A stretch of 64,000 nucleotides of DNA from Fimbriimonadia bacterium (GTDB lineage Bacteria; Armatimonadota; Fimbriimonadia; Fimbriimonadales; JABRVX01). The translations under genes and the position numbers were made by a program. A model generated the notes under the pieces. The model had not been told where the DNA came from, searched no databases, and saw only the letters and a list, made by a program, of their open reading frames with translations. Of the stretch, positions 34,796 to 63,504 are shown piece by piece (within the stretch, counting starts at the first letter, position 1; every line of letters starts with the position of its first letter). The stretch is from NCBI GenBank assembly GCA_041483895.1, contig JBGPGO010000007.1, forward strand, positions 64,001 to 128,000. Direction: 5' to 3'.

Positions 34796-37700
34796 TTAGG
34801 TGGTTGCCGCCGGCTGTGGGACTGGCGCAATCGCCAATCGGTGATTCAACCAGGCGCCCAAGGCGAGGATAGCCTCATCCGCGGCACGAAAGACCGGTAG
34901 GCCTGCCGCGCGGACGGCGGATGCCAGGGGATCGAACAGCGGACCGGCGTCACAGACAAACAGGATGGGTTTCCCGCCGCAGTCTTGCCAACCGCCGCAG
35001 AGAGAAGGAAACGCCGCCGGATCACCCAGTTGTGATTCCAGCGTCCTCAGTTCGGGGGCAAGCGGAACGCAGGAAACGATGACCGCGTCCACGCCATCAT
35101 CTTTGAGCGCCGCGCGCACGATTTCGTCATAAACGGCTTCATCCGCCATCGGGGTCAAATCCATTGGGTTGCGTACATCGACGATGCCACCCAAGTTGCG
35201 CCTCGAAATCACCGACCTCAGTTCCTCACGAAGGGAATCGCTCAGATCGGCAAATTGGGCTGTGGCCCCATCGGCGAGCATGGTATCGGCGAGGCTGACT
35301 GCTTCCATCCCCGCATTCGTGACCGCGAAGACGCGATTCCCTCGGGCGGTCCTATCCGCCAACAGAGTAGCCGTTTCAAGCGACTGGTTGAACTCCCGGA
35401 AGTTCTCGACAACGATCGCTCCCGCCGCATGCATCGCTGACTGGCAAATGTCATAGTCTCCCGCCACAGCGGCGGTGTGACCGGCCGCCGCGAGCCTTCC
35501 CGCCTCGGTCCGGCCCGCCTTATAGAAAACAACCGTCTTGCCCGACTTCGCCAATTGGCTTACGGCGCGCAAAGTCTCCAAACCGTCCAAATTGGCGAAA
35601 CCCTCCACGTAGACGCCGATCACCTGAACGTCCGGCCGGTCGTGAAGCGCCCAAAGCAAGTCTGATACGGTCACGTCCGCCTGGTTGCCGATGGAGATCG
35701 TGAACGCCGGGCGCAAATGCTCCAGGCTGCTAAGGCGCGACACGATAAACGCCCCGCTTTGGGACAGTATCGCCACCGGTTGCGCGGGGCGATCGTCTTG
35801 GCGGGCCATCTTGTTCTTAGGAATGAAGAACGTGTCATAACCTCCGGGCCGGGACTGTATACCCATGCAATTGGGGCCGAGGACCACGCATCCGCCGTCC
35901 GGCCGCTGTCTGCCCTCTCGTATGGCCTCCCGAATCTCCTCGCCGATTCCGTGCGAATCTTCCGTCTCCCCTCCACCGCCGGAGATGATTATCGCCGCAC
36001 GCGCCTTGCCGGTGGAGTTAACGGCCGAAAGGATCGAGGGCGCCTCCTTCGATGCGGTGGAAATCACGAGCAGGTCCACGGGTTCCGGCAGGTCCGCGAT
36101 GTCCGGAACGCACCGAACGCCGTCGATTTCGGTGACGTCCTTCTTTACCACCGTCACTTTGTCCTTGGGAAAACCGGATTGGAGAATGTTTCCGAGAATG
36201 ATCCGTCCGATGCTGTCCGGTTTTGAGGAAACGCCGATCAATGAGATCGAGTCCGGCTCCAGCATCTTTCGGACGTTCTCTTTTGGGCGCGCCGGGGCGG
36301 CCTTGGCGGCTGTTTGCAACCAACCGCGTCCATCGAGCGGAATGAGGCGTTGATTGCGGAAGGCGAACGGATTGACCTCCAATTCTCCGATGTCCGGCCC
36401 CTCTTCCCCGCGATCCACGCAGAAACCGCGGGCGATAGCGATGAACGCCCGGAAGCACCGGAGCAGCTCCCCGTCCGACACCCTCCGCTCATGCCCTCTT
36501 GCCTTGCCCGCCAAGATATCGTACGCGGCGGTCTCCATGAACCGCTCAAGAAACGTCTCCGCGTCCGTATCCATGGCGACCGCTTTCGCTACAGCGACGC
36601 CCGGCCGCATTTTCGTGGCAAGGTACTCCGTATCCAGACCGCCCAGCCCTGCTGCGATAACAGGTCCAAATTCGCGAGTCGCACGTATCCCCACAAATAG
36701 CTCGCCGCCGAAACCGCGGAACTTATTCTCCACAAACTCCACAACCAGCGCGCCGGCGACGGTGGCGACGCCCGTATGTCGCTCGATAAGACGGTCAATC
36801 TCAGTTCGCACCGCTTGAATCGTCTTCGGAACGAAGGCCACCGCGTGCGCATCCGTTTTGTGAACGATCTCTGGCGACACCAGCTTCACCACCACCGTGT
36901 CGCCGGGATACTGCTCCAGCGCTTCTCTGGGAATCATCGACCCCTTCGGCACAAACGAGTATCGTGGCGGCGAAATCGCGCCCACCAGCTCCACAAGCGA
37001 ATACACCTCATGCTCGTAGAGTCTCCGTCGGCCTTCTTCATAGGCGTTCATCAGGATGCTCTCAAAAGCATGAGCCTCCGCGCCGGAAAGCCGGTCCTCC
37101 CGGCCATGACACTCGCCCCACGACTCGGTCAGGAGACCGGTCGCATCAAGTGGGAGACCGGTCGCATCAAGGAAATCAACAAGCGACTCGGTCAGGAGAC
37201 CGGTCGCATCCAGTGCATCCTCGGAGGCAAGATGCTCGGGGGAGAGCGTCTCGATCCACTGCCGTACGGACTTCGGTGAACCGCCTCGTTGCAGCCCATC
37301 GACATAGGCGGCAGCCGCCGTTCGTCCGAAGCGAAAAGCGCGGAGGTTGGCGTCTACCACCCGCTCCCCTTTCGCGGCGAACAGCTCCCGGATCGCCCCC
37401 TCCAATTCCGACACCGTGAAACCGAGGAAAAGCGAAGCGGCCCCCATCGCGACGGTGTTCGCGGTCATCGTGCTGCCGGCCGCCCGCGCAAGCTGCAACA
37501 TGCTGATCGCCACATGGTTCGGGAAGCCGACAAGATGGTCGAGAACGGATTCGATGGGCGGATAGTTGCCGATGTTCGTTACCGCGTTCGTGCTCGCGAT
37601 AACTGTGCCGTTCGGCTTTAGCATCTCGGCATACCGAAGGGCTTCCAGCGGCTCGATCGCCAAGATCATGTCCGCCTCGCCCATCGGAATCATATCGCTG

Positions 37701-37879
37701 AATATCTCCGAGCTGGAGATGCGCAGATGGGAATAGACGGCCCCACCCCTCTGAGACATGCCATGCACTTCCGCCTGCTTTACGTGCATTCCCTTTCCGA
37801 GCGCGGCAATGGAAAGCCCCCTGGCGATGGTGAGGATCCCTTGCCCTCCCACTCCGGCCAAAACGATGTTGTGTTCCAT
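34796..37879 (-). CDS. iorB: Indolepyruvate:ferredoxin oxidoreductase beta subunit fused to ADP-forming acyl-CoA ligase (ATP-grasp + CoA-binding + ligase domains)
   Basis: N-terminal GVGGQGILT, AEVHGMSQRGGAVYSHLR, EPLEALR; then LYEHEVY, KLVSPEIVHKTD, FGPVIAAGLGG, ELEVNP, LGPNCMG, SQSGA, SIGNQAD, KAGRTEAG..AAAGHTAA, NPMDLT. Confidence 0.88.
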   Translation of the reverse strand: MEHNIVLAGVGGQGILTIARGLSIAALGKGMHVKQAEVHGMSQRGGAVYSHLRISSSEIFSDMIPMGEADMILAIEPLEALRYAEMLKPNGTVIASTNAVTNIGNYPPIESVLDHLVGFPNHVAISMLQLARAAGSTMTANTVAMGAASLFLGFTVSELEGAIRELFAAKGERVVDANLRAFRFGRTAAAAYVDGLQRGGSPKSVRQWIETLSPEHLASEDALDATGLLTESLVDFLDATGLPLDATGLLTESWGECHGREDRLSGAEAHAFESILMNAYEEGRRRLYEHEVYSLVELVGAISPPRYSFVPKGSMIPREALEQYPGDTVVVKLVSPEIVHKTDAHAVAFVPKTIQAVRTEIDRLIERHTGVATVAGALVVEFVENKFRGFGGELFVGIRATREFGPVIAAGLGGLDTEYLATKMRPGVAVAKAVAMDTDAETFLERFMETAAYDILAGKARGHERRVSDGELLRCFRAFIAIARGFCVDRGEEGPDIGELEVNPFAFRNQRLIPLDGRGWLQTAAKAAPARPKENVRKMLEPDSISLIGVSSKPDSIGRIILGNILQSGFPKDKVTVVKKDVTEIDGVRCVPDIADLPEPVDLLVISTASKEAPSILSAVNSTGKARAAIIISGGGGETEDSHGIGEEIREAIREGRQRPDGGCVVLGPNCMGIQSRPGGYDTFFIPKNKMARQDDRPAQPVAILSQSGAFIVSRLSSLEHLRPAFTISIGNQADVTVSDLLWALHDRPDVQVIGVYVEGFANLDGLETLRAVSQLAKSGKTVVFYKAGRTEAGRLAAAGHTAAVAGDYDICQSAMHAAGAIVVENFREFNQSLETATLLADRTARGNRVFAVTNAGMEAVSLADTMLADGATAQFADLSDSLREELRSVISRRNLGGIVDVRNPMDLTPMADEAVYDEIVRAALKDDGVDAVIVSCVPLAPELRTLESQLGDPAAFPSLCGGWQDCGGKPILFVCDAGPLFDPLASAVRAAGLPVFRAADEAILALGAWLNHRLAIAPVPQPAATT
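37121..37210 (+). repeat. Repeat family A array (two full copies + one half copy) inside the iorB fusion CDS
   Basis: Copies at 37121-37147, 37152-37168 (half) and 37183-37210; translated as DATGLLTES..DATGLP..DATGLLTES. Confidence 0.93.
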
Positions 37880-39518: not shown

Positions 39519-39613
39519 TGCGACTCGGTCAGGAGACCGGTCGCATCCTTCGAGTACCATCCCTTCAAAGTCAGACTGTGAAGGGATGGTTGCGAAGTCT
39601 GACTTTGAAGGGA
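39519..39613 (+). repeat. Intergenic repeat cluster: family A copy (39519-39547), family B palindrome (39556-39590), inverted B half (39596-39613)
   Basis: Direct sequence matches to both consensus sequences. Confidence 0.9.
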
Positions 39614-39617
39614 TTAA

Positions 39618-40577
39618 TTATACCTGCGGCCGGATGCCCTCCTTCTTCCAGACTTCCCGAATGAGCTCATACCGGTCCAGCCGCATGCCGGTATAAATGC
39701 AGTTGCTGGTGCTAAAGATATACCCAGGCGCGCTCAGGCCGGTTCGAATGGCATAGCGCGCCGATTCCACGCACTCTTCATCCGTCCCCGTCTGGAGCTT
39801 GCCGCAGTCCACGTTTCCACACAGGCAGACCTGGTTGCCGACGAGCCGCGCTACCTCCGCGATATCGACACCTCCTTGCGGATCGAGGGAATGAAGCGCG
39901 TGCGGGTTGCAGCCGACGAGCCGATCCAAAATCGGCATGATGTTGCCATCGGTGTGCTTGATCACGTAGAAACCGCGGTCCCGATATTCCTGCACGATTC
40001 GGTTGAGATGGGGAGTTATGAACCGGTCGAACCAGGGAAGGGGCAGGAAACTTCCGGAGTTGAAGCAATAGTCGGAGCAGAGCGCAAAACCGTCCAACGC
40101 GCCGTGCTCGCGCAGCCGGTCCGCCCTTCGGATGTGCCGGTCGACGTTTTCCGATGCCTCTCTGTCCACGACGCCGGGAGTTTCATGCATTCGCAGGCTC
40201 ATCTCCTCCATCTCCTCGCCGTTCGGGATGGCGAACGTGGGATCGCCGTGCATCATCAGGAAGTGCCGGCCCTGGTCGAGATCGCAAATCTCATCGAGAA
40301 GCCGCATCTCTTCGTCAATGCCGCCGGGGTTTGGATGCACGAAGATCGCGTCGTGCTCGAACCGCTCGGCGGTCGCCACGAACAGCTCCGCCATGTCCCG
40401 CCGGTGCAAGCGCCGCTCCGTCTCGGTCATCTGGCGCCATTGAGAGTAATCACGATGGGAGGGGTGCACCTTGCCGAATGCCTCCATGGTCAAGAAGAAC
40501 ACCAGCTCGAAGTGGGGCACGAGGCCGGGAGGCGAGCGGCGTTCGAGGGCGGCGACGAACCGTTCGCGCGGCGTCAT
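39618..40577 (-). CDS. Uroporphyrinogen decarboxylase/MtaA-CmuA family methyltransferase-like protein
   Basis: MTPRERF, CSDYCFNSGSFL, IKHTDGNIMPILD, LCGNVD, YIFSTSNCI; ATGA overlap with the upstream gene. Confidence 0.85.
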   Translation of the reverse strand: MTPRERFVAALERRSPPGLVPHFELVFFLTMEAFGKVHPSHRDYSQWRQMTETERRLHRRDMAELFVATAERFEHDAIFVHPNPGGIDEEMRLLDEICDLDQGRHFLMMHGDPTFAIPNGEEMEEMSLRMHETPGVVDREASENVDRHIRRADRLREHGALDGFALCSDYCFNSGSFLPLPWFDRFITPHLNRIVQEYRDRGFYVIKHTDGNIMPILDRLVGCNPHALHSLDPQGGVDIAEVARLVGNQVCLCGNVDCGKLQTGTDEECVESARYAIRTGLSAPGYIFSTSNCIYTGMRLDRYELIREVWKKEGIRPQV

Positions 40578-41497
40578 GTCTGGATCGGCAGAACCCCAAG
40601 GGCCTCGGCGACCGCCCGAATATGGTCCGGAGTCGTCCCGCAGCAACCCCCAAAGATGCGGACCCCTGCCGCGATGGCCGACACCGCGCAGTGGGCCAGT
40701 TCCTCCGGTGGTGCCAGATACACGGTCGAAGCGCCGGTAAATCTCGGTTCCCCCGCATTCGGCTGGAGCAAGACCGGCACGCCCTGAGAGGCCGCAACCA
40801 ATTCGGGCGCCAAGTCAACGTAATCCGACATGCTGAGGTTAGTTCCGCAGTTTGCCCCGACCGCATCGGCGCCCGCTGAAAGGGCGGCGGCAAGCGCATC
40901 GCGGACCGTCGCGCCCATCATCGTTCGGAAGCCTTCGCCGGTTCGCTGGAACGCATAGCTTGCCAGTACCGGCCAGTCCCCGGCCTCCCGGGCGACGCCC
41001 ACTGCCAAGGACATCTCAATCGGGTCTGCCATCGTTTCCACAATCACTCCATCCGCGCCGGCTTCTTGAAATGCCTCAATCTGCACGCGGGTCGCCGTGA
41101 GAAACTCATCCTCCGTGGTCTCTCCGTATGGTTCCAAGAACCCGCCAAAGGGGCCGATGTCGCCCAACACCCAACCGTCGTCTCCGACGGCCCGGCGGGC
41201 AATTTGGACGGCCGCCGCGCTCAGCTCGCCACAGCGGTCGGCAAGGCTATGCCGTTCCAATGCCAGGGCGCTGCCGCCGAAAGTATTCGCCGAAACGACC
41301 CGCGATCCGGCCTCCGCGTACGAGCGATGGACATCTTCGACCGCTTCCTGATGGTCGATATTCCAGAGCTGCGCGCATGTGGCGGCGGTAAGTCCGGCGT
41401 GGAGGAGCATGCTTCCCATCGCGCCGTCCATCAGAAGCACTCCTTCCGCGAATTGCTGATCGAGCCAGGCCTGCCCTGAGCTTGTCGAACGGGTCAT
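40574..41497 (-). CDS. Homocysteine S-methyltransferase domain protein (stand-alone MetH N-terminal module)
   Basis: LMDGAMGSML, HRSYAEAGS, ANTFG, GDIGPFG, VETM, GANCG, PNAGEP, GGCCGTTPDHI (Zn-binding Cys). Confidence 0.92.
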   Translation of the reverse strand: MTRSTSSGQAWLDQQFAEGVLLMDGAMGSMLLHAGLTAATCAQLWNIDHQEAVEDVHRSYAEAGSRVVSANTFGGSALALERHSLADRCGELSAAAVQIARRAVGDDGWVLGDIGPFGGFLEPYGETTEDEFLTATRVQIEAFQEAGADGVIVETMADPIEMSLAVGVAREAGDWPVLASYAFQRTGEGFRTMMGATVRDALAAALSAGADAVGANCGTNLSMSDYVDLAPELVAASQGVPVLLQPNAGEPRFTGASTVYLAPPEELAHCAVSAIAAGVRIFGGCCGTTPDHIRAVAEALGVLPIQT

Positions 41498-42714
41498 GCC
41501 GTCGCCTCACCCGCTACCATCCCTTCACAGTCAGACTGTGTAGGGATGGTAGCGGGTGGTCCGAGGTGCCAGACCTTGCCCATCGGCTTGAGGTTGATTC
41601 CATGACCCCAACGCTTGCGGGCAAGGCGGAGATAGTAAAGATAGCTGTCAAGCGGGACGTCGGGCGGGACGCGGTGGTCGCAAAACGGTATGTATCCGCC
41701 TTCCTCGACGAGCGGGGCCAGGCGGTCGATCTCCTCTCGAATGCCACGGCGGCTTCCCGCTAAGATGTGCTTGTCGAAACCGCCCATCATGAGAAGGTCC
41801 TTGCCATATTCCTTTCTGTACCGCAGAGGATCTGCCCCCCAAGTGCCGATCTCGACCGGAAACATGCAGTTCACCCCGACGCCCATCCATAGCGGGATCA
41901 GGTTCTCGATGTTGCCGTCGCAGTCCAGCCATATGATGTCCACGCCGTGTTTGTGCAGCAGGTCCGTGATTCTCCGATAGCGCGGCATCAGGAATTGACG
42001 GAAGTGGTCGAGGCCCAAAAGCGGGCCGCCGGAATAGCACATGTCCTCCCACATGCCGCAGGCGTCGAACTGAACCCCCGAATCGAACGCCTTTTGTAGA
42101 TACCCGCAGACCAGATCGGCAATCGTGTCCACCATCTCTTCGAACCACGCGGGGTCGTCATAAACGACGTAGGAGACGTTTTCGACTCCCATCCAATTGC
42201 GAATCCACCCGTACAGGCTGCCGCCAGGGAGGGTGAGAACGTTTGGCCGGTACGGGTTCTTCCACCGCTTGATGCGCTCGGACCAAGCGGGAGGGAATCG
42301 GCCCGGCGAATCGGGATTGAGGCGCGGTTTGTAGTGTTTCTCCCAACTCTCCCGGTCTGTAAGCAAGTGGCTTACGTGCATCGGGATGGAGCCCATGAAC
42401 TTGTGCCGAAGGACCCGAACGCCGTCCTCGCCTTGCACGACCTCCATGTCGCCGCGATCTTCGATGACCACTCGTTCGAACCATGGATCGAGCGATTCGC
42501 GGATGCCGACCCAGCCCTCATACCGATCCATGCCGAAGAAGTCGCAGGCTGTATTCTCGTCCAGATGCTCCGGCAGGCCCTGCCCTTTCCAAAGTTCGAT
42601 CGTTTCCGACCAAAACCCGAAGTCGCAGATGGGGACTCGGTCGGGAGAACTTGCGACTCGGTCAGGAGACCGGTCGCATCGCATGGTCGCCAGGAATCGT
42701 TCGCGGTCGTTCAT
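41494..42714 (-). CDS. Uroporphyrinogen decarboxylase/MtaA family methyltransferase-like protein with repeat-derived N- and C-terminal peptides
   Basis: MNDRERF, GFWSETIELWKGQGLP, WEDMCYSGGPL, WLDCDGN, MGGFDK, GGYIPFCDHRVPPDV. Confidence 0.87.
   Translation of the reverse strand: MNDRERFLATMRCDRSPDRVASSPDRVPICDFGFWSETIELWKGQGLPEHLDENTACDFFGMDRYEGWVGIRESLDPWFERVVIEDRGDMEVVQGEDGVRVLRHKFMGSIPMHVSHLLTDRESWEKHYKPRLNPDSPGRFPPAWSERIKRWKNPYRPNVLTLPGGSLYGWIRNWMGVENVSYVVYDDPAWFEEMVDTIADLVCGYLQKAFDSGVQFDACGMWEDMCYSGGPLLGLDHFRQFLMPRYRRITDLLHKHGVDIIWLDCDGNIENLIPLWMGVGVNCMFPVEIGTWGADPLRYRKEYGKDLLMMGGFDKHILAGSRRGIREEIDRLAPLVEEGGYIPFCDHRVPPDVPLDSYLYYLRLARKRWGHGINLKPMGKVWHLGPPATIPTQSDCEGMVAGEATA
41508..41558. 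repeat. 51-bp near-perfect palindrome (extended family B) within the 3' end of the UroD-family CDS
   Basis: CACCCGCTACCATCCCT-T-CACAGTC-A-GACTGTG-T-AGGGATGGTAGCGGGTG; encodes the PPATIPTQSDCEGMVAG tail. Confidence 0.9.
42634..42680 (+). repeat. Family A copy (42652-42680) plus adjacent half-site-like sequence (42634-42648), inside CDS
   Basis: Translated as CDRSPDRVASSPDRVP. Confidence 0.9.
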
Positions 42715-42715
42715 A

Positions 42716-43795
42716 TCAATCGTAGTTCCCGTACTTGTCCACCATCTCAATCACAAAGCGGTAGGTATCCCAGCTCACGGTCGGGGGGACGGAGTGGTCG
42801 GAATGATACGCGTAGCCGAGGGTCGCCATCCCAGCCTCCAGCTTCGACCGGACCTCCTCCTCAATCCGCTCCTTGTCATTGGTCGCCATCACCATCACGT
42901 CGATGTTGCCGAACATCGCCAGGCGTTTCCCGTATTTTGGGGCCATCTCGCGCACGTCCATTCCCGCTTTCGCCTCCAGCGGCTGCAGGCAATCGAATCC
43001 GGCGTCGATGTAGTCCGGCAGGATGGAATTGACGTCGCCGTCGGTGTGAAAAATGAAGGGTAAATTATGTTCATGCGCCCAATCGGCAAGCCGCTTGTGG
43101 TCCGGCCAGACATATTTGCGATACATGGCAGGCGAGCAAAACGGTCCCCGACGGTAGGCCATGTCGCCGAATATCCAGACGCCATCGGTGTCAATGCCGT
43201 GTCGAACCAAATTATCGAAGTCCTTGAGCACGAGGTCGGTCATGGTCTGGGAGATGTCCACCGCCCATTCCGGGTCATCGATAAGGGCTATGAGGAAAGT
43301 CTCGTCCCCCACTTGTCTTCGGGCAAGTTCAAAGGTTTCCAAGGCGCAATGAAATGTCCAGCGGCCGTTCCGCCTTCCGAGCGTCCAATAGTCGCGGCAC
43401 ACAGTCGGGTCGGCGAACGGCCATGCTTCCAGCAGTTTCGGCTTGTAGACCTTGTACCAATCCTCGCGCGTTTGGCAACCGAAGCCGGTATGTTCCGGCG
43501 TGCCAGACTTGTGCTTCCAATACTTCGTCAAATTGTCATATTGGTCGCGGAACGTCCGAGTGAATTCGTCTTCCGCTACGGTCATGTCTTGACCGGGAAA
43601 CGGCCGCGGCTCACTCCACATCGTGGGTTGAAAGTCATACCCGATGAACTCCAGCGCCGCATCGGTCATTCCCTCGGAGCGCCAACGGGTGATGGTCTCA
43701 TCCCAATGGCTGTCCCCTCGTGGGATGCAGTCTTGTGCCTCACGCCGGAGCATCCGGTTGAACCGCTCCCTCCCGGACATACGGGTGTTTCTCAT
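42716..43795 (-). CDS. Uroporphyrinogen decarboxylase/MtaA family methyltransferase-like protein
   Basis: MSGRERF, WDETITRWRSEGM, FGDMAYRRGPFCSP, IFHTDGD, LQPLEAKAGMD, FGNID, YHSDHSVPP. Confidence 0.88.
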   Translation of the reverse strand: MRNTRMSGRERFNRMLRREAQDCIPRGDSHWDETITRWRSEGMTDAALEFIGYDFQPTMWSEPRPFPGQDMTVAEDEFTRTFRDQYDNLTKYWKHKSGTPEHTGFGCQTREDWYKVYKPKLLEAWPFADPTVCRDYWTLGRRNGRWTFHCALETFELARRQVGDETFLIALIDDPEWAVDISQTMTDLVLKDFDNLVRHGIDTDGVWIFGDMAYRRGPFCSPAMYRKYVWPDHKRLADWAHEHNLPFIFHTDGDVNSILPDYIDAGFDCLQPLEAKAGMDVREMAPKYGKRLAMFGNIDVMVMATNDKERIEEEVRSKLEAGMATLGYAYHSDHSVPPTVSWDTYRFVIEMVDKYGNYD

Positions 43796-43801
43796 TGCGC
43801 G

Positions 43802-44428
43802 CTAGCCCGCCAGGAGCCGGCGGGCGGTTTCGACTCCGCTCGCGGCGTCGGAGGCAAATGCGTCCGCACCGATCTGGTCGGCAAATTCCTGAGTGATGGG
43901 GGCTCCGCCGATGATCACCTTCGCCTTGACACCCGATTCTCGTATCGCCGAAATCGTGGCTTTCATGGAGGGCATGGTTGTGGTCAAGAGGGCGGAAAGC
44001 CCTATTAGGTGAGCGCCGTTTTCTTGGGCGGCCTCGACGAAACGTTCGGCGGGCACATTGGTTCCCAGGTCAATCACATTGAAATGAGCGCCCCGCCACA
44101 TCATCGCGACCAGGTTCTTTCCGATGTCGTGGAGGTCGCCTTGGACGGTCCCGATAACGGCGGTGTGTTCCGGCCGGATACCGGCCCTGACCAAGATCGG
44201 CTCCAGCAGCGCCATGCTTTCCTTCATCGCGCGGGCGGCGATCAGCATTTCGGGTACAAACGCCTCGTTCCTTTGAAACCGATCCCCGACAACGTCCATG
44301 CCGCTGACAAGGGCGGAGAGAATGTCCTTGGGGTTGGTGTTTGCGTCTATCAATTCCTGCGTGAGGCTGGCCGCTTCTTTGCGGTCGCCTCGGATCACGG
44401 CTTCGCTCAACGATTGAAACTGTGTCAT
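43802..44428 (-). CDS. Methyltransferase-cognate corrinoid (B12-binding) protein
   Basis: Cap domain GMDVVGDRF..FVPEML; DxHxxG motif GTVQGDLHDIGKNLV; GLSALLTTT; IIGGAP; IGAD. Confidence 0.93.
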   Translation of the reverse strand: MTQFQSLSEAVIRGDRKEAASLTQELIDANTNPKDILSALVSGMDVVGDRFQRNEAFVPEMLIAARAMKESMALLEPILVRAGIRPEHTAVIGTVQGDLHDIGKNLVAMMWRGAHFNVIDLGTNVPAERFVEAAQENGAHLIGLSALLTTTMPSMKATISAIRESGVKAKVIIGGAPITQEFADQIGADAFASDAASGVETARRLLAG

Positions 44429-44575
44429 GAAGACTCCTTCGCGGATGCGCGGCCAGGGGATTTGCCCCCGACCGTGTCCTCAATCCCTATTATGAGGCAC
44501 AAGAAATCCAAATTCCAGGCGAAATTGGCTGAATCGGCAGAACCGTTTGCCAAATTCGCGATAAAATTCACACAA

Positions 44576-45412: not shown

Positions 45413-45456
45413 GGATGCGACCGGTGGGGATGCGACCGGTTTCCCGACCGAGTCGC
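45301..45456. repeat. Family A cluster at the DUF1638/RACo junction: two direct copies, one inverted half, one inverted copy
   Basis: 45301-45328 (+), 45349-45376 (+), 45414-45425 (- half), 45429-45456 (-). Confidence 0.9.
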
Positions 45457-47120: not shown

Positions 47121-47310
47121 ATAGGTCGTATAGGACGTATAGGACGTATGGGTCCTATCGGCAAGCATTGCGAGCCCGGTCAGGAGACCCCGGAAGAACT
47201 TGCGACTCGGTCAGGAGACCGGCCGCATCCAGTGGAAGTTCCGACCCCCTTCACAGTGCGACTGTGAAGGGATAAAGTACTTGCGACTCGGTCAGGAGAC
47301 CGGTCGCATC
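47121..47310. repeat. Composite intergenic repeat block: 9-mer tandem array (47121-47158), degenerate A, A (47201-47229), B (47247-47271), A (47282-47310)
   Basis: Lies between the convergent RACo and GH36 genes; direct matches to all three repeat families. Confidence 0.9.
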
Positions 47311-53913: not shown

Positions 53914-54554
53914 TCGCGCAACTCTCGCATCTTGACAACGTCCATGTGCTCGAAGCTCTCCCGAACGCGAAACAGGACGATTCCGGCCAAGAGAACCCCG
54001 ATGAAGAGGTCGAATAGGATGCCCAACTCGATAACGACAGGCATTCCCGGTGTCTGAGTGGAGGCGTATGCGAAAATGCCGTTGTCGAGCACGAGAAACC
54101 CAATCAGCATTCCCATTGCCGATCGCCGGGTCATCATGATCATGAGGCCGATCAAGACGGTGGCCATCGCCAGCCCGGCGCTGGCGGAAAGGAGCCCGGT
54201 CGCCGAAAACCGTCCGCTCTGAAAATAGCAGACTGCCGTGGCCGCCGCGCCAAACGGCATCGCCAATCCGGGTCCAATCCCCACTCCTCGGTCCCGAACG
54301 ACTTGCAACCGGCAGGCGCTCCAATTCAAGAACACGGGAATTCCAATTGCCTTCAGCGCAATGACGGCGCAGCCAAGCCACTGCTCGCCCGGAGACCCTT
54401 CACTGATTCCTCGGAAGAGCAACAGCGCGCCCAAAGCCGCGCTTTGCGCAGCCAAACCCCATAGCATGCTCCGCACCCGAGTGACACCGAGCATCCAGAG
54501 TGAAGCCATCGTCGCTAGTCCGATGAGGTCTTGGAACTGTGTCAAGCCATCCAT
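53910..54554 (-). CDS. hyfE: Ehr/Hyf membrane subunit (HyfE-like)
   Basis: LAAQSAALG, LKAIGIPVFL, IGFLVLDNGIF, MPVVIELGILFD. Confidence 0.82.
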   Translation of the reverse strand: MDGLTQFQDLIGLATMASLWMLGVTRVRSMLWGLAAQSAALGALLLFRGISEGSPGEQWLGCAVIALKAIGIPVFLNWSACRLQVVRDRGVGIGPGLAMPFGAAATAVCYFQSGRFSATGLLSASAGLAMATVLIGLMIMMTRRSAMGMLIGFLVLDNGIFAYASTQTPGMPVVIELGILFDLFIGVLLAGIVLFRVRESFEHMDVVKMRELRE

Positions 54555-55478
54555 CTAGCTTCCCACCGCCGCCACGAAGGCGGACATGACTGCCAGCGCC
54601 GTAGAAAAAGCGACGAACGATGGAACGCGCCTCCAGTTGAGCTTGACAGCGATTCCCTCCAGAATCCCCAGCAAGAATCCGAGCAGCAGAATCATTCCGC
54701 CGGTAAGCATGGCCTGGAAGACACCCGGCCCAAGCGACGGACTCATCCAACCCAGCGTCATTCGAATGCCGATGCCGAAAAATACCGCCGTACGAAGGGC
54801 AACGGTCGTTTCGATGAGCGCAAGGCTGCGTCCGCTGTTTTCGAGAATCGTCGCCTCGTGGATCATGGTTAATTCCAGGTGCGTCGTCGGGTCGTCCACC
54901 GGCATACGCGAGAGTTCCGCCAAGGCCGCGACCAAAAACGCAGACCCGGAAAGTAAGGCCACGGTACTTCGAATCGGTGATTCCAAGGCGATCGACAGGT
55001 CCGTCGATCCGCTTGCAAGCGCGACAGCGGTCAAGCTCACCAGCACGCTTGGCTCTATCAGCACCGCCAATGCGACTTCGCGGCTCGCTCCAAGACCTCC
55101 GAACGCCGAACCGGTGTCCAACGCACCCAACACGGAAAAGAACCGAGCTGCCGCAAGGAGGTAGACGATCAGAATCAGGTCCGCCGCTCCCGTCCCCCTG
55201 GCCAATGGTTCCGCGCCTGTCCAGGGTACGACTGCCGCGACCAAGAGCGCAATACCGAACCCAACCAAAGGGTTCGCGCGAAAAACCCAGGAGGTGGTCG
55301 AGCTGATGGTCTCACCCTTCCGGAACCTCTTGGCGAGGTCGAAAAACGGTTGCAAGAACGGCGGTCCGGGCCTTCCCTGCATCAGCGCTTTGGTCTTGCG
55401 GATCACGCAAGTCAGCAGCAATGGGATGAAGATTAGTTCCGTCAGGTGCAATGTCCGCAGAGGCAACCCGGTCATCAT
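54555..55478 (-). CDS. hyfC: Ehr/Hyf NuoH-like membrane subunit (HyfC/HycD-like)
   Basis: KALMQGRPGPPFLQPFFDLAK, LDTGSAFGGLGASRE, AELSRMPVDDPTTHLELTMIHEA. Confidence 0.87.
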   Translation of the reverse strand: MMTGLPLRTLHLTELIFIPLLLTCVIRKTKALMQGRPGPPFLQPFFDLAKRFRKGETISSTTSWVFRANPLVGFGIALLVAAVVPWTGAEPLARGTGAADLILIVYLLAAARFFSVLGALDTGSAFGGLGASREVALAVLIEPSVLVSLTAVALASGSTDLSIALESPIRSTVALLSGSAFLVAALAELSRMPVDDPTTHLELTMIHEATILENSGRSLALIETTVALRTAVFFGIGIRMTLGWMSPSLGPGVFQAMLTGGMILLLGFLLGILEGIAVKLNWRRVPSFVAFSTALAVMSAFVAAVGS

Positions 55479-57436
55479 AGAACGCCCGCCAGCCACCAGA
55501 GCAACCCGAGCGTGATCACCATCCACATCAAGTATTGGTGAATGCTGCCCGCCTGCAGTCGCATGATGAACCCTTCGGACAGCCGCACGGCCGCTCCCAA
55601 TGCGGGCGAATAGACCCGCGACTCCAGATACGGCTCATGGCGCGACTCGGCACGGACCTCTGTTGGAAAATGCCGTCGCCCTTTCCCCTCGACTGCCACT
55701 TCCATCTCGTAGCGATACAGCGCACCGAACAGCCGCACAATCGGCTGCGCGAAGCTCGCAGCTGTGTATTGCGCGCGCGCCGGCAGAGCGCCGAAACCGC
55801 AGTCCCATGTGACATATTGCCGTGCGGGACGCCATTTGGCCAATCGAGTCATGGTGGCCCAGACGACGCCAATGACAGCGAGACCCGCAATCGTCATCGG
55901 AATTATGGGGAGACTGTTGCCGGATGCCTGCCGCGTTTGGACGAATCCCAGATCAAACATAGCCTGCCAAACCCGAGGCGCGCCCAGGCCCAGCGCCGCG
56001 CACAGAACAGCGAGGAACCCGCACGCCGCCGCCATTGCGGGACCGGCTTCGCGGGCTTTGGCAGCCTCTCTGCTGCGCGGCTGTCCAAGGAAACAGATTC
56101 CGAACGCCTTACCAAAACAGGCAAGGGCCAATGCGCCGACAAGGCCAACCCAACCCAGAAGGAGCACAGCCACCAACCTCAGCTCGCCGCTCGGACCGGA
56201 AGCGCCCATCTGGAAGAGTCCCTTGTACAGCAGCCATTCGCTGGCAAAGCCGTTTAAGGGCGGAAGAGCGCATATTGCGGCGCTTCCGACGAAGAACATC
56301 GCTGCCGTCCAAGGCATCCGGTGGATCAGACCACCCAAGCGATCCAACTCCCTCGTGTGAGCGTTGGCATCGACTATGCCCGCGCACAAGAAGAGCAAGG
56401 CCTTGAATATCCCGTGGTTCAAAGTATGAAATAACCCCGCAGCCAATGCAACGTCCGAAACAGCACGAAGTCCCGCTCCCCGCGCCACGAGAGATATTCC
56501 CGCCGCAAGGAGAATCAGGCCGATGTTTTCTACGCTGTGATATGCCAGCAGTCGCTTTAGGTCGTGCTGCAGCAATGCAAACAGCACTCCCCAGAAGGCG
56601 GATACGGCTCCCGCCGCAATCAGCGCCCATCCCATCCACGGAACTCCGATGCCGCCTAACAAAAACAGCCGAAAAATCGCATAAATCGCCGTCTTGATCA
56701 TCACGCCGCTCATGAGCGCGGAAACCGGGCCAGGAGCAGCTGGGTGCGCAATCGGCAGCCACAGGTGGAAAGGCCATGAGCCTGCCTTCGTCAGAAGACC
56801 GACGAGAATGAGCGCCGCCGGACCCGAGGCCTCGCCGCCCCGGATGATCCATTCCTGGAAATTCCATGATCCCGTCATCGCATGCGCCCAAAGAAATCCC
56901 GCCATCAAGAACGCTGAGCCGATCCGCGTCGCCCCCAGGTAAATGAACGCTGCCCGTCGAACAGCTTGCCGTTCATGCTCCGTGGCAACCAACAGGAACG
57001 AGGACAGTGCCATCAGTTCCCAAAATGCGAAGAACACGAGCGCGTTGCGTGCGATGACGACGCCTGCCATGCTGGCGAACAACAGCGCCAGACCCGACCA
57101 GACGAGCCCCGGACGCGCCCGTCCACGAAGATGTTGCAAATAACCAGGGAGATATATGCAGATTGGAAGTCCGACGACCCCTATCAGACCAAGAAACCAT
57201 CGGCTCAACGGATCGATGACGAAGCTGATGTCCGTCCCTGCCAAACCGATTCCAGCCGGCAGGGTGACGAGACCGGTCTTTCCGATAAACGCCGACAGCA
57301 GACACAGAGCGCAACCAGCGATACTTAGTACCCCCGCAACGCCAACACGACTCGCGGAGCGGAGCAGGCCCAGCAGACTCGCGATTCCAAAGATCGCCAA
57401 CGCGCCGACGACTATGGATGGCGAATCGAAGTTCAT
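55475..57436 (-). CDS. hyfB: Ehr/Hyf antiporter-like membrane subunit (HyfB/HycC-like)
   Basis: FWELMALSSF, KAGSWPFHLWLPIAHPAAPGPVSALMSG, DLKRLLAYHSVENIG, NHGIFKALLFL, LPPLNGFASEW, TWDCGF..AQYTAASFAQP. Confidence 0.88.
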   Translation of the reverse strand: MNFDSPSIVVGALAIFGIASLLGLLRSASRVGVAGVLSIAGCALCLLSAFIGKTGLVTLPAGIGLAGTDISFVIDPLSRWFLGLIGVVGLPICIYLPGYLQHLRGRARPGLVWSGLALLFASMAGVVIARNALVFFAFWELMALSSFLLVATEHERQAVRRAAFIYLGATRIGSAFLMAGFLWAHAMTGSWNFQEWIIRGGEASGPAALILVGLLTKAGSWPFHLWLPIAHPAAPGPVSALMSGVMIKTAIYAIFRLFLLGGIGVPWMGWALIAAGAVSAFWGVLFALLQHDLKRLLAYHSVENIGLILLAAGISLVARGAGLRAVSDVALAAGLFHTLNHGIFKALLFLCAGIVDANAHTRELDRLGGLIHRMPWTAAMFFVGSAAICALPPLNGFASEWLLYKGLFQMGASGPSGELRLVAVLLLGWVGLVGALALACFGKAFGICFLGQPRSREAAKAREAGPAMAAACGFLAVLCAALGLGAPRVWQAMFDLGFVQTRQASGNSLPIIPMTIAGLAVIGVVWATMTRLAKWRPARQYVTWDCGFGALPARAQYTAASFAQPIVRLFGALYRYEMEVAVEGKGRRHFPTEVRAESRHEPYLESRVYSPALGAAVRLSEGFIMRLQAGSIHQYLMWMVITLGLLWWLAGVL

Positions 57437-57816
57437 GTCGCCCGCTTTCGGCGAGTATTCTTGACCGGATTTTTCTTCAGAGCCGTTGGTTCGAGCTGCT
57501 CCATCATCTCGGCCATTTCGGCGATGCGCGCATAGCAGAATGCCCGGAGGGTGTTGAATACTTGCGTGATCGCCGGATCGCGGATCGAATACAGGACGCT
57601 ATTTCCGACCTTTCGCGGACTGAGGATGCCCTTGCTGCGAAGGATCGTCAGGTGCTGTGAAACGTTTGCCGGCTCGATGCCAAGTTGCCGGCACACCTCT
57701 CCCGAGGACAGCTCTCCATCGCGCAGAAGTTCAACGATAGCGACCCGTGTCGGATGCGCCAGCGCCTGAAACACTTCTGCCTTGTACCTCCGGATTGCTT
57801 CATCCATATTCATCAT
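57433..57816 (-). CDS. ArsR/SmtB family transcriptional regulator heading the Ehr operon
   Basis: KAEVFQALAHPTRVAIVELL..ANVSQHLTILRSKGIL..RKVGNSVLYSI; the longer ORF-track N-terminus is translated repeat DNA. Confidence 0.9.
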   Translation of the reverse strand: MMNMDEAIRRYKAEVFQALAHPTRVAIVELLRDGELSSGEVCRQLGIEPANVSQHLTILRSKGILSPRKVGNSVLYSIRDPAITQVFNTLRAFCYARIAEMAEMMEQLEPTALKKNPVKNTRRKRAT

Positions 57817-57841
57817 CCGTCTCGGCCATCGCCGAGAGAAA

Positions 57842-57871
57842 ATCATGGCATATATATTCGCAATTTCGCAA
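57842..57871 (-). promoter_or_regulatory. Candidate sigma70 promoter for arsR-ehr
   Basis: Minus strand TTGCGA-18 nt-CATGAT with an upstream TG (extended -10), in an AT-rich patch with tandem TTCGCAA repeats. Confidence 0.3.
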
Positions 57872-57937
57872 GGGACAACTTTCGAACTTTCGCAGGAATC
57901 GCTTCGCTTTCGGTTAGACGTGGGACCTGGATGCGAC

Positions 57938-58141
57938 CTGGATGCGATCGGTCTCCTGACCGAGTCGCAACCATTCTCTAGGTCTCCTGACCGCCCACCG
58001 TTTGTCTTGTCAAGAGACGCCGGAAGAACCTGCGACTCGGTCAGGAGACCGGTCGCATCTTTGGGCATCTTTGTGGTTGTGTCAGCGAAAACCTGCGACT
58101 CGGTCAGGAGACCGGTCGCATGGAAGGAGACTGGTCTCATC
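57938..58141. repeat. Family A cluster: inverted copy (57941-57969), half (57981-57993), direct copies (58031-58059, 58094-58121), degenerate tail
   Basis: Direct sequence matches; 57938-58006 is the inverted partner of 59881-59949. Confidence 0.9.
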
Positions 58142-59754: not shown

Positions 59755-59963
59755 GTCGTATAGGACATATAGGACTTATACGACATATAGGACCGTTCTG
59801 GTTGCGACTCGGTCAGGAGACCGGTCGCATCGCATCCAGCATCGGAGTTGCGAGCAGGTTCTTTCAGGGTCTCCTGACCGGACAAACGCCGGGCGGTCAG
59901 GAGACCTAAAGAATGGTTGCGACTCGGTCAGGAGACCGGTCGCATCCAGTGACCGGTCGCATC
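59755..59963. repeat. Composite intergenic repeat block: 9-mer array (59755-59793), A (59803-59831), two half-sites, A (59918-59946), half (59951-59963)
   Basis: Direct sequence matches. Confidence 0.9.
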
Positions 59964-59968: not shown

Positions 59969-61075
59969 CTAGTGGTGGGGCGGTGGAGTGTCGAGGATGC
60001 CCTTGAGCGTCATCAAGCCGATGAGCAGAACGACCGCCACGCCGGCATCGATCACCCACTGGCGCTTACCCGGATGGCGCGATTTCGAACGGTCGAGCCA
60101 CGGAAGGAAGAACATGCCGAGCGACACCAGCCCCGGAGCGATGACCGTCGCCACGATCTCCCACCGGGCGGGCATTAGCTTCAGGAGCTCATACAATCCA
60201 AGGAAGTACCACTCCGGCCGGGGTACGAAGTCCGTCCCGGCGGGATTGGCGACCGACTGCAACTCGGCGCCTTTCGTCAATGCCAGATAGATCACCAGCC
60301 CCATGCCTAAGAACACGACCACTGCATCGCGGAAGAGCTGAACCGGGAAAAATGGGACGGGCCTTCCTTTTTGCGGCACAACCGGCCCGGCTATGTGAAG
60401 CCGTCGGACGAGATAGAGATGGAGCGCCGTCAAAGCGATGAGCGCGGCAGGCAGGAGCATGATGTGGATCGCGTAGAAGCGGCTCAGGGTTAGCGAACCG
60501 ACCTCTTCCCCGCCGCGAATCAGGACCATCATCGCGTGGCCGACGAACGGGACGGTGTTCGCAATCCGGGTGCCCACGACCGTCGCCCAGTACGCCTTCT
60601 GGTCCCAGGGCAGCAGGTAGCCCGTGAATGAGAAGCCGAGCATGATCAGAAAGATGAACGAGCCAACGAGCCAAGTCAACTCGCGCGGCTTCTTATAGGA
60701 TCCAAAGAAGAAGACACGAAGAATGTGCAAGACGGTGACGATGACGATCATGGTCGCGCCCCAGAGGTGGACGCCACGGACGAATGAGCCGAGCGGGACC
60801 TGATAGGTTAGGTACTTCACGCTATCATACGCCGTTGTCGGTCCAGGGCTGTAGAACATGGCCAACGCGATTCCTGTGACGAACTGAAAGACCAGCAGCG
60901 TGAGCAGCAGGTTTCCGAGTGTCTGCCACCAGCCCACGCCGGGGGGCATTGGCTCATCCAGGTTCTTGCGAACAAATCCCCACCAGCCAAGCCGCAGATC
61001 CAACCAGTCCTTGAAATTTGGGCGCTCTAGTTTTAGTTGATCTTCTTGGGACAGCATTTCTTCGCTCATGATCAC
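59969..61075 (-). CDS. petB: Cytochrome b of a Rieske/cytb complex (cyt b and subunit IV in one chain)
   Basis: QFVTGIALAMFY, RGVHLWGA, HILRVF..YKKPRELTW, FTGYLLPWDQKAYWA, TLSRFYAIH, PEWYFL. Confidence 0.93.
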   Translation of the reverse strand: MIMSEEMLSQEDQLKLERPNFKDWLDLRLGWWGFVRKNLDEPMPPGVGWWQTLGNLLLTLLVFQFVTGIALAMFYSPGPTTAYDSVKYLTYQVPLGSFVRGVHLWGATMIVIVTVLHILRVFFFGSYKKPRELTWLVGSFIFLIMLGFSFTGYLLPWDQKAYWATVVGTRIANTVPFVGHAMMVLIRGGEEVGSLTLSRFYAIHIMLLPAALIALTALHLYLVRRLHIAGPVVPQKGRPVPFFPVQLFRDAVVVFLGMGLVIYLALTKGAELQSVANPAGTDFVPRPEWYFLGLYELLKLMPARWEIVATVIAPGLVSLGMFFLPWLDRSKSRHPGKRQWVIDAGVAVVLLIGLMTLKGILDTPPPHH

Positions 61076-61569
61076 ACCATCTTCAAAACATAGATCTTGC
61101 CGTTTTCGATTTTTGTCGGATGTGTCTTTAGGCCCTCCGGCGGCGGACCGGCAACAACACGGCCTTGGTCGTCAAAGACGCCACCATGGCAAGGGCAGAA
61201 ATAGCGCAACTTATCATCCTGGAATTTGATCCGGCAGCCAAGGTGCGTGCAAGCCGGATCGAAGGCGACCACCCGATCGGGGAAACGGCGTAAGTAGACG
61301 GTGTACTTTCGCTCCGTATCCAGGTATCCGTCCTTCATCTTGAACGTGAACGAGACCTCGCGCGTTTTTCCCTCCGGCAACTCATGGTCGTCCAGAATCG
61401 GCACCCATTGGCCCGTCGATTTCCGGACGATGGGCGATCCAATGAAGCCCAGCACCGGGCCGAGGATCGTGCCGGCTACCACCACGTTGATAATGCCGAC
61501 CAGCCAACCGAGGAGCCTCCGCTTGCCGGGATCCAGTGGTACAGTCTCTAACGATTGATTTGCGCACAT
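61072..61569 (-). CDS. Rieske 2Fe-2S subunit
   Basis: KRRLL + TM anchor (Tat-like); CTHLGC and CPCHGG boxes; GPPP. Confidence 0.93.
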   Translation of the reverse strand: MCANQSLETVPLDPGKRRLLGWLVGIINVVVAGTILGPVLGFIGSPIVRKSTGQWVPILDDHELPEGKTREVSFTFKMKDGYLDTERKYTVYLRRFPDRVVAFDPACTHLGCRIKFQDDKLRYFCPCHGGVFDDQGRVVAGPPPEGLKTHPTKIENGKIYVLKMV

Positions 61570-61584
61570 TGGAACACAACCTCC

Positions 61585-63504
61585 TCATGGGTAATAACGG
61601 ATCACAATCGTCTTTGCCTTGACCGGATCGACGAGATCGACCACCTGCCGCGCGATGCGGTCCGTTTTGTGATGCCGGCCGGGTGATGGCTCACGGCGGT
61701 ATCCGATCTCGACGCCTGACTCCGTGAGCGCTTCCGTGCCACGCGTGACCGCGACCAGCGCCGGCACGACCCACGCATGTGAGAAGCGGGTAAACGGCGC
61801 TGTCGCGATGAGAAGTGTGATTGAGGACAGGTGATACAGATAGATCGTGAGGATCCAGGCGGAACCGCCCAACCGGGCCAGGAAGAAGACGAAGAAGCCG
61901 CTCAATATCGTGTGGAACAGCAGGTTGACGAACAGGAAATCGCGTCCCAGCGTGACCCCGTTGTCAATGAATTCGTCTTTTTGGTACCGATACTTCACAT
62001 AGAGGATGCCAATGAACACGGCGAGGCCGGAGACGAGCGGCAGCACTTTCAGCGCGCTCCCCAGCGGCAACTCCGCGCGCATCGGGTTGTAGATCGCGAT
62101 TAGGATGTCGGCGAGCATCAGGCCGCAGAAACCGTACAGGATCAACCCGTGCATAAACCATCGCAACGGGCTGCGCCGAAACAGTGAGGCAACGAGGAAG
62201 CCGTCAACAATCATCGCGCGCAAGGCAATCAGCGCGGCCTTGCCGGTACCAAATTTGCGCAGGTATGGCCTGGCCTGCCGGATGCCCGTGCAATCAACCC
62301 AATACCAGAGCACTTTCAAACCGAACAAGAATGCGAACCCGAAGACGAATAGGAAGTAGATGGACAGCTTCTGAGGGGTGAGCAGGCTGCCGATCTTGTA
62401 GGTCAGCGGGACCTGGTCGGGAAGCCACGGTTTCAGGCGGACTTCATCTCGAATGGAATTCAGGTCGCTGTCAGACAAAGCGTCGGCCGAAAACGCCGGC
62501 ATCATGCCCTTGCCCTTTCGGACGATCGCCTGAAACTCCGCATCTGTGATTTTCGTCTTGGCAAGGGGTGGACCGAGTCCTCCCATCGCGGCGGCGCCGT
62601 GGCATCCGACACAGTTCGAGGTTGAGAAAACATCTGTTTTCGGGCCCTGCCCCATCGCGACGGCGGCAACGAGCAGAGTTAGGCCGAGGAGCGATGTAAT
62701 GCGAATAAAGGCCTTCTTGAATAGCGACAGCGACTCGGTCAGGAGCCCGGTCGCATCGACCTTCTTCAAGACTGACATCGGCCGAGTCGCGTGGACTGCG
62801 GGCCGGGCTATCTCAGTGACCCCAATCCCCACAAACGCTTCTTCCGTGCCTCCGTGCAGAGTTGCGGTCTCTTGTTCCGACATGGGTCCGAGGTAGCAGG
62901 TGGCAGGATTCGTCTTGCACTCCGGCAGCAGGTGGAACGGCTCGCGCCCGGTCCCGATCGCTTCTTCGACGATATATCTGGAGATTGCGCTATGATCATC
63001 TTCCAGGTCGCCAAAAATGCGCGCGGTGGTCGGGCAAGCGACGACGCATGCGGGATCGAGACCTTTGTCCACACGGTGAGCGCAGTACGTGCATTTGCGC
63101 GCGACGTTCTCTTTCAGGCGCGGCCGAACGTGCTTGGTTTCGTACTCCATATCGTCCTCGAGATACCAGCGGTCCACTTTCTGCAAATACACGTTGCCGT
63201 ATGGGCAGGCGGAGACGCATGCGCCCGTTCCTTTGCATCGGTCTTGGTCGATGAGCACGATGCCGTCATCGCGGCGGAAGATCGCCTTATTCGGGCAGGC
63301 CTTCAGGCACGGCGCGTCGTCGCAGTGGTTGCACAGAATGGGCAGATAGAAGCGCTTGACGGCGGGATATTTGCCGGCCTCGATATTGATTACGCGGGCG
63401 AAAAAGGTATCCACCGGCGTGCCGTTCTCCTGCTTGCACGCCACGGTGCAGGCATCGCATCCGATGCAACGCGTCATGTCGATCAGCATCGCGTACCGCG
63501 CCAT
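61585..63504 (-). CDS. DmsB/NrfC-type 4x[4Fe-4S] subunit fused to monoheme cytochrome c and a NarI-like membrane domain
   Basis: CIGCDACTVACK, CNHCDDAPCLKACP, CKGTGACVSACPY, KCTYC..PACVVACP; hydrophobic helix; CVGCH..GPPL..GMMPAF; then RWFMHGLILYGF, HTILSGF, YLYHL..PFTRFSH. Confidence 0.85.
   Translation of the reverse strand: MARYAMLIDMTRCIGCDACTVACKQENGTPVDTFFARVINIEAGKYPAVKRFYLPILCNHCDDAPCLKACPNKAIFRRDDGIVLIDQDRCKGTGACVSACPYGNVYLQKVDRWYLEDDMEYETKHVRPRLKENVARKCTYCAHRVDKGLDPACVVACPTTARIFGDLEDDHSAISRYIVEEAIGTGREPFHLLPECKTNPATCYLGPMSEQETATLHGGTEEAFVGIGVTEIARPAVHATRPMSVLKKVDATGLLTESLSLFKKAFIRITSLLGLTLLVAAVAMGQGPKTDVFSTSNCVGCHGAAAMGGLGPPLAKTKITDAEFQAIVRKGKGMMPAFSADALSDSDLNSIRDEVRLKPWLPDQVPLTYKIGSLLTPQKLSIYFLFVFGFAFLFGLKVLWYWVDCTGIRQARPYLRKFGTGKAALIALRAMIVDGFLVASLFRRSPLRWFMHGLILYGFCGLMLADILIAIYNPMRAELPLGSALKVLPLVSGLAVFIGILYVKYRYQKDEFIDNGVTLGRDFLFVNLLFHTILSGFFVFFLARLGGSAWILTIYLYHLSSITLLIATAPFTRFSHAWVVPALVAVTRGTEALTESGVEIGYRREPSPGRHHKTDRIARQVVDLVDPVKAKTIVIRYYP
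62730..62757 (+). repeat. Family A copy inside the FeS-cytochrome c linker
   Basis: GCGACTCGGTCAGGAGCCCGGTCGCATC, translated DATGLLTES. Confidence 0.9.

Follow-up and report, generated by a model that had tools for sequence, protein, structure and literature searches.

In Escherichia coli and other bacteria, the transposase TnpA-REP binds repetitive extragenic palindromic (REP) elements as folded single strands, cuts them on the 5' or the 3' side and can rejoin the ends (PMC3333891, PMC8266576). A nick-primed, rolling-circle-like model has been proposed for the tandem amplification of REPs (PMC3333891, Fig. 7B), and the mechanism and frequency of REP spread by REP-associated tyrosine transposases (RAYTs) are stated to be unknown in the text of the same paper (Ton-Hoang 2012). 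REPs also occur within genes. The main text of Di Nocera 2013 describes intragenic REPs tagged GTAG or CGTC, most of them in Opitutus terrae and Rickettsia conorii, as singles, dimers and clusters encoding 7-82 aa in several frames; Rickettsia palindromic elements (RPEs) 4 and 6 are treated there as REP-type repeats, and the O. terrae cases fill 70 rows in part 1 of supplement 3, including ftsY, RF3, purL, dxr, lpxK, uvrA and dnaE2 (PMC3733652). In-frame REPs within tnpA genes (subclass 2.4) and atypical feet for subclass 2.6 are reported in the text of Quentin 2018 (PMC6006769), and Delihas 2011 reviews fusions of repeats with open reading frames (ORFs) (PMC3184786).

Here we analyse a 29-nt hairpin repeat of a Fimbriimonadia bacterium (3.95 Mb, 57.9% GC, 95% complete) that was noticed in a 64,000-nt stretch of its genome, contig C7:64001-128000, referred to as the window. 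An earlier note made from the letters of the window had described this repeat as a REP-like element that colonises coding sequence in frame. It is well supported that the repeat is real, and that it works like and belongs to the REP/RAYT system while carrying neither the GTAG nor the CGTC tag. The reading that we favour, with a probability of roughly 0.8, is that it is a non-autonomous REP mobilised by a RAYT encoded on contig C12, and that its in-frame copies survive nearly neutrally in permissive loops.

The 29-mer matches the window 19 times with at most 3 mismatches and has no match in 100 dinucleotide shuffles. The 19 near-full copies listed in the earlier note are thereby recovered, 13 of them at the same start and six shifted by 1-2 nt (37119, 37182, 45300, 45348, 46621 and 62729). 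All lie between 37.1 and 62.8 kb, and a looser scan of the window adds 8 partial copies. The bulged hairpin folds as had been claimed, with predicted energies of -12.2 and -12.4 kcal/mol on the two strands and a z-score of -2.6 for the fold of a window copy, and no Rfam model matched positions 36500-63500 of the window above its gathering score. The functional strand is the opposite of the one first presented. On it, a GATG head leads into 11 bp of stem, interrupted by one bulged base and closed by a TCCY loop, and a weak NNGT tail follows; the T and G of the head are already paired into the stem. The whole genome holds 151 copies when up to 4 mismatches are allowed. Their head positions 1-4 are G in 145, A in 149, T in 151 and G in 149 copies, no base is conserved upstream, and 6 of the 151 copies carry a two-sided change at one stem pair. 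Every copy with a TCCT loop is also a 5-codon micro-ORF (MRPVS*), whose ATG comes from the head and whose TGA comes from the loop.

The repeat thus compares closely with the published descriptions of REPs, of bacterial interspersed mosaic elements and of REPINs with their RAYTs: it is a bulged hairpin of about 30 nt, an imperfect palindrome within the 20-40-nt range, with a conserved 5' head, head-out doublets and tandem arrays (PMC3333891, PMC6006769, PMC8266576). It departs from the REPs described there in its head, which is GATG and not GTAG or GTGG, and on this ground the GTAG-tagged REP superfamily was ruled out as its family. The CGTC-tagged repeats and Rickettsia RPEs were rejected too, the profile having no CGTC terminus and a RAYT being present. 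GATG does not occur in the main text of PMC3733652, its figures aside.

The family has a high copy number and is restricted to this species. Pattern searches found it neither in 40 relatives nor in 400 genomes of the phylum, a metagenome collection held no exact 27-mer, and in 227 further genomes of the order the matches to a loose 18-mer were mostly at chance level. A relative from the same order (G234; C1, L084) has at least 12 dispersed copies of a hairpin repeat whose inner stem and loop are similar.

The earlier note had suggested a search for a RAYT flanked by the repeat, and one was found on C12. A PF01797 search of the genome returned six Y1 genes, none with a full REP copy nearby; each of them is flanked by other hairpin families. 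A hidden Markov model (HMM) built from these six genes revealed two more intact Y1 genes and a fragment, which brings the genome to at least eight intact RAYT-like genes plus the fragment, paired with at least five hairpin families. The C12 gene, missed by Pfam and found with this HMM, is a 178-aa ORF (C12:73418-73963) with the motifs THVH and YMHNNP; it scores 85.5 bits against NF047646 (cut-off 80) and matches E. coli TnpA-REP (4ER8) weakly, with E = 0.011. One full and two partial REP copies lie upstream of it and 8 near-full copies downstream, in opposite orientation and facing inward. Such an arrangement makes the locus a REPtron, and its RAYT is the likely transposase of the family. More than 100 copies, restriction to one lineage and a flanking HUH-Y1 gene with Y---NP are likewise features of published REPtrons, as far as the cited texts describe them. 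By motifs and length alone, the enzyme resembles TnpA-Y1 subclass 2.6 (Bertels group 5), for which about 179 aa, NH[LIV]H, YIH[QN]NP and non-GTAG feet are given; the rows of supplement 2, part 5 of 7, contain no GATG foot for this subclass (PMC6006769). Among homologue loci with enough flanking sequence, 62 of 72 share a repeat on both sides, mostly a hairpin. A perfect hairpin was detectable at 18 of 28 homologue loci in the phylum, and 8 of these 18 have a GATG or GATC foot.

A sister RAYT on C6 (123191-123736; L082), 47% identical to the C12 enzyme and also above the NF047646 cut-off, is flanked by a different family with GTTG or GATG heads. In the RAYT genes of C6, C21 and C27, the last codons are encoded by the gene's own flanking REP (…STGGPVE…).

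The 151 copies form 80 clusters. With gene calls from our own dicodon model (3144 genes, 83.6% coding), 60 copies fall in 33 predicted genes and 91 between genes; 34 clusters are genic and 46 intergenic, that is, 10 per Mb of coding sequence (CDS) and 71 per Mb of intergenic sequence. Cluster density per base is about 7-fold lower within genes than in intergenic sequence. The family is therefore predominantly extragenic, and the earlier statement that it colonises coding sequence was too strong, yet the genic share of about 40% of copies is large and sets the repeat apart from REPs as described in the papers cited above. Clusters are themselves grouped: 41 of the 80 have a neighbour within 5 kb (16 expected at random), and the window is a hotspot with 13 clusters in about 33 kb. 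Neighbouring copies are arranged head to tail in 51 pairs, head-out inverted in 18 and head-in in 2, so that tandem pairs outnumber inverted doublets, unlike in those published REPs. A 119-bp inverted doublet of the window recurs at three other sites in the genome. Miniature inverted-repeat transposable elements of the DDE type were considered and rejected for want of a target-site duplication: of 19 head-out doublets, 15 lack any direct repeat at their flanks, three have one of 1 nt and one has one of 3 nt.

Individual sites include an intergenic copy at C8:15345, 2 nt past the rpsJ stop and before rplC, and a cluster between recA and recX (C18:41589-41705). Tandem arrays stand at the contig ends C17:48, C23:45-223, C30:64-194 and C6:31, where they probably break the assembly; the C30 and C6 ends resemble two halves of one glcF-like gene.

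A footprint of how copies may multiply is visible in their flanks. After tandem arrays sharing at least 10 nt of flank and units shorter than 8 nt had been dropped, a second GATGC preceded 33 of 175 heads by no more than 30 nt (577 of 13629 in the control). In these pairs the flanks are identical at positions -1 to -4 in 23/33, 21/33, 22/33 and 17/32 cases, against 28-32% in the 577 control GATGC pairs, and fall to baseline from -5. The start of the duplicated unit is near-constant at -3/-4, its end ranges between 5 and more than 40 nt, and its commonest length is 9 nt. Truncated copies are polar as well, with 36 fragments anchored at the 5' end and 12 at the 3' end. Duplication of a 4-nt flank along with a REP fragment anchored at its 5' end would predict a nick about 4 nt upstream of GATG. 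On the favoured reading, the HUH/Y1 RAYT of C12 would recognise the REP as a single-stranded hairpin and nick it about 4 nt 5' of GATG; from the 3'-OH, a host polymerase would copy more or less far into the REP, and rejoining to the strand held by a 5'-phosphotyrosine would leave the 4-nt flank and a 5' fragment of the REP ahead of a full copy. Nicking, extension and rejoining of this kind could grow head-to-tail arrays and seed nearby sites. The nick-and-extend model published in Fig. 7B of PMC3333891 matches this footprint in outline.

In the best surviving alternative, the RAYT accounts for origin and long-range spread while local arrays and truncated heads arise, with no nick, from polymerase stalling or slippage at the hairpin. 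Hairpins are generally known to stall replication, and some fragment junctions show 1-2 nt of microhomology; we also count on this side that no leading- or lagging-strand bias of the copies was seen (54 versus 48, with 42 ambiguous, by a crude skew proxy). Slippage would, however, follow microhomology and not a fixed offset, whereas the units start at a nearly constant position and end at variable ones, and the polarity of the fragments speaks against it too. We consider this alternative unlikely, if worth keeping in mind.

Outside the window, a scan of 28 proteins places TrmD, Era, Ffh, HemW, WaaA, MutY, GspF, FeoB, ImuB and DnaE2 among the hosts. In Era about 70 residues, and in Ffh 55, have no counterpart in any of the five relatives aligned, and TrmD is about 60 residues longer than two relatives of the same family, while two more distant genomes have their own shorter inserts in the same loop. 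From the DTPG to the NKxD motif, Era spans 129 residues here and 58-70 in 24 orthologues. In alignments with Protein Data Bank structures, the break falls between two cleanly matching halves. The orthologue alignments thus bear out the expectation of lineage-specific in-frame peptide insertions in loops and linkers. AlphaFold2 run on a 25-sequence alignment of Era gave a mean predicted local distance difference test (pLDDT) score of 84, with the core mostly above 90 and values below 50 only at residues 121-178 (the single-sequence run, at pLDDT 35, was uninformative). Low scores are expected there because the alignment has no rows in that region, so the model demonstrates an undisturbed core more than it proves disorder.

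Several inserts have grown by more than one repeat. The genome contains about 20 repeat families, several of them likewise in frame in genes, and the inserts of HemW, WaaA, Ffh, TrmD and DnaE2 are mosaics of two to six families. One of the partners is a G-rich repeat that is itself biased to one frame (15 of 18). Another repeat family lies within 150 bp of 16 of the 34 genic clusters, against 0.23 expected under uniform placement in CDS, and it is likely that existing hairpins are targeted by new insertions, although such a null leaves out of account how scarce permissive sites are. Inserts of 55-70 residues, predicted to be disordered mosaic loops, occur even in Era, TrmD and Ffh; in the proposed scheme, permissive loops would gather further hairpin families until they reach this state. 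The most heavily invaded locus is imuB-dnaE2 (C8:63553-69256), whose DnaE2 has 1502 aa and 15 repeat matches from seven families. Other Armatimonadota have their own shorter inserts in these loops, in TrmD in L063 (G005) and L065 (G003) and in Era in L207 and L214; the G005 TrmD insert reads like the G-rich partner repeat.

Reading frames show how such insertions are filtered. The 60 genic copies are read as DATG in 35 cases, ATRSGDRSH in 9, RLGQ in 7, CDSV in 6, CDRS in 3 and MRPVS in none. The window genes use four frames (DATG, CDRS, RLGQ/RLGR and CDSV), as had been noted; the fifth open frame, ATRSGDRSH, appears elsewhere in the genome. That the stop-containing frame goes unused in genes holds for all 60 genic copies, but this is largely circular, genes being defined as open frames. 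A loop variant found in 44 of the 151 copies opens that frame, and none of the 16 genic copies with the variant uses it, which is weak evidence given the strong bias towards DATG, the frame present in 24 of 34 genic clusters. DATG also has the best codon-model score (1.88), followed by RLGQ (1.59), and the other frames score negative. Duplicated units of at most 24 nt in CDS are multiples of 3 in 13 of 13 cases, and for units of all lengths the figures are 22 of 28 in genes and 14 of 31 between genes (p = 0.015, the units not being fully independent). A Pfam scan of the proteins flanking 20 co-oriented intergenic loci revealed no evident gene split by a REP; 8 of these 40 proteins had no family, and the one pair in which both were PilZ had a near-complete domain in each. 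Coding scores of the 46 intergenic clusters likewise gave no evident broken gene.

The 7-fold depletion in CDS, the multiples of 3 and the lack of split genes together fit a picture in which disruptive events are purged and other insertions survive in permissive loops. A gene-breaking insertion would be removed, and whole-codon insertions in surface loops, linkers and termini could persist nearly neutrally. The genic copies fit the role of survivors of harmless insertion and need not be taken as evidence for function; the proposed "peptide-insertion generator" stands as a neutral by-product.

Several points weigh against the favoured reading as a whole. RAYT activity and the position of the nick are deduced from sequence. 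Simple copying fails to account for duplicated 4-nt flanks that share only about 50-70% identity next to a nearly invariant REP body, and no fixed dinucleotide marks the putative -4 junctions, so that the nick would be set by position, unlike the CT/CA cleavage of the characterised TnpA-REP as given in PMC8266576. No allele with an empty site turned up from a close strain, and hence no primary insertion junction. At 10 of the 18 hairpin-bearing homologue loci there is no GATG or GATC foot. The excess of DATG is only partly explained by its codon-model score, and 6 of the 28 genic units are not multiples of 3, so that some blocks were assembled elsewhere or compensated. Finally, the gene calls come from our own model, and NCBIfam offers no match for 5 or 6 of the host ORFs.

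More tentatively, and with rather less than even odds, this RAYT clade may nick by ruler, about 4 nt 5' of GATG whatever the sequence, and the footprint would then record abortive nick-primed copying that is possibly error-prone. The several RAYTs of one cell might preferentially target hairpin clusters already in place, making a handful of tolerant loops in essential proteins nurseries in which new disordered domains of 55-150+ residues grow stepwise.

The inserted peptides could instead have been positively selected, for example because they act as loops for interaction or regulation or because the hairpins pause translation, the repeat being a domesticated generator of peptides. The strong DATG bias, the retention of inserts in essential genes and the independent inserts in the same TrmD and Era loops of other genomes are what such selection would leave. 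We regard it as improbable all the same, with clusters depleted in CDS, host genes functionally unrelated, and inserts that are mixed-frame mosaics, predicted to be disordered, variable in length between strains and absent in relatives. It is very improbable that the host genes are decaying or unexpressed, or that the inserts are removed at the RNA or protein level. ImuB and DnaE2 are heavily loaded, which counts in its favour, but era, trmD and ffh are single copy in this nearly complete genome, and their products keep their conserved motifs and are 63-74% identical, outside the insert, to family-level relatives; removal from the RNA would not require that frame be preserved even in the shortest units. 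Last, an assembly artefact of a repeat-rich metagenome-assembled genome is barely conceivable: short-read assemblies do break and tangle at these repeats, with many two-place fits and joints, but misassembly gives no reason for a preference for multiples of 3 or for variable loops, and contigs from public sequencing runs containing this DNA, all sediment metagenomes and none listed as RNA, bridge at least 4 of the 8 genic copies examined (37119, 45300, 45348 and 45429) with unique sequence on both sides, although one run may be the source sample.

In the window, five ORFs, all with the expected Pfam domains, contain nine full copies in frame, the number given in the earlier note: two in an IorB-ligase, one in a UroD-family protein, two in a DUF1638 protein, three in RACo and one in a FeS-cytochrome c protein. 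The IorB-ligase linker (37119-37210, minus strand; ORF 34796-37879, minus strand) contains full copies at 37119-37147 and 37182-37210 and a 5'-anchored fragment at 37155-37168, head to tail and in the DATG frame; it measures 115 aa against 86-89 aa in 8 orthologues, a net gain of about 27 aa. At the N-terminus of the UroD-family protein (gene 41494-42714, minus strand), a copy in the CDRS frame (42652-42680, minus strand) is followed by a second, partial copy, with a net gain of 8 aa relative to 3 orthologues. Two copies in the RLGR/RFGQ frame (45300-45376, minus strand) add 32 aa near the C-terminus of DUF1638 (ORF ending at 45412, plus strand; 6 orthologues), and contigs of two runs bridge them. 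Near the N-terminus of RACo (45396-47090, plus strand), a 5'-anchored fragment followed by a REP (45429-45457, plus strand) in the DATG frame adds about 7 aa. A loop of the RACo C-terminal domain, already variable among orthologues, is expanded here by two copies and a fragment (46584-46676, minus strand), in the CDSV and then the RLGQ frame. The RACo insert has a 6-nt in-frame length variant in two runs, one contig each. The weakest case is the linker of the FeS-cytochrome ORF (61585-63504, minus strand), where a REP in the DATG frame (62729-62757, minus strand) lies in 105 aa compared with 77-101 aa in 6 orthologues, and the boundaries of the insertion are not sharp.

The remaining copies are intergenic. 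One with the consensus sequence (39519-39547) has its GATG head on the minus strand. Two full copies and one partial copy (47176-47310, minus strand) separate the convergent RACo and glycoside hydrolase genes, and copies in both orientations (49992-50181) lie upstream of a likely glycoside hydrolase start, the one at 49992 in an open ORF extension that is probably untranslated. The 119-bp inverted doublet, heads outward, stands upstream of arsR together with a degenerate copy (57941-58122); the degenerate copy opens a 111-codon extension before arsR (57433-58140) that is probably untranslated as well. A cluster at 59803-59963 (minus strand) has two full and three partial copies. As to the neighbouring genes, 39618-47090 holds a corrinoid methyltransferase cluster (three UroD-family proteins, a homocysteine S-methyltransferase-like and a B12-binding protein, DUF1638 and RACo) that is partly syntenic in L021, L016 and others. 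An ArsR-led, complex-I-like membrane cluster at 50186-57816 is, we presume, of the formate hydrogenlyase type, and a cytochrome b/Rieske/FeS-cytochrome/molybdopterin cluster occupies 59969-63903. Some relatives have the FeS-cytochrome protein as a fusion, and others have it split at the REP-bearing linker.

Short REPs translated in frame are thus largely precedented, and the novelty that the earlier note implied for them has to be given up, since they are already catalogued for several frames and essential genes in the text and supplement of PMC3733652. The O. terrae and R. conorii repeats listed there are, like ours, short palindromes translated in several frames, singly or in clusters, but they have another sequence and tag, and here several unrelated families meet in one loop. 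The gene dnaE2 is a target in both O. terrae and this genome; part 1 of 3 of that table has no O. terrae row for era, trmD or ffh. RPE-1 (Ogata 2000, as cited in PMC3733652 and PMC3184786) is also palindromic DNA in frame in housekeeping genes, of about 105-146 bp and, in those two papers, with no dedicated transposase reported, compared with about 30 bp and a RAYT here. What this genome adds is a matched enzyme and a view of how far mosaics have grown within essential proteins; new as well are the non-GTAG (GATG) head and the footprint in the flanks. We found no paper on this GATG family or on the 4-nt flank-duplication footprint, though subscription papers and further supplement parts may hold one.

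For annotators the inserts are a warning, since they split HMM matches and make proteins come out too long. Taken together, the loops of Era, TrmD, Ffh, HemW, WaaA and other proteins form a map of where insertions are tolerated. With a single enzyme of 178 aa, a single substrate of 29 nt and a predicted position of the nick, the mechanism of REP spread becomes directly testable; and if nicking by ruler and growth in nurseries were true, this genome would provide genomic evidence for rolling-circle-like REP amplification and for live de novo domain growth in core enzymes.

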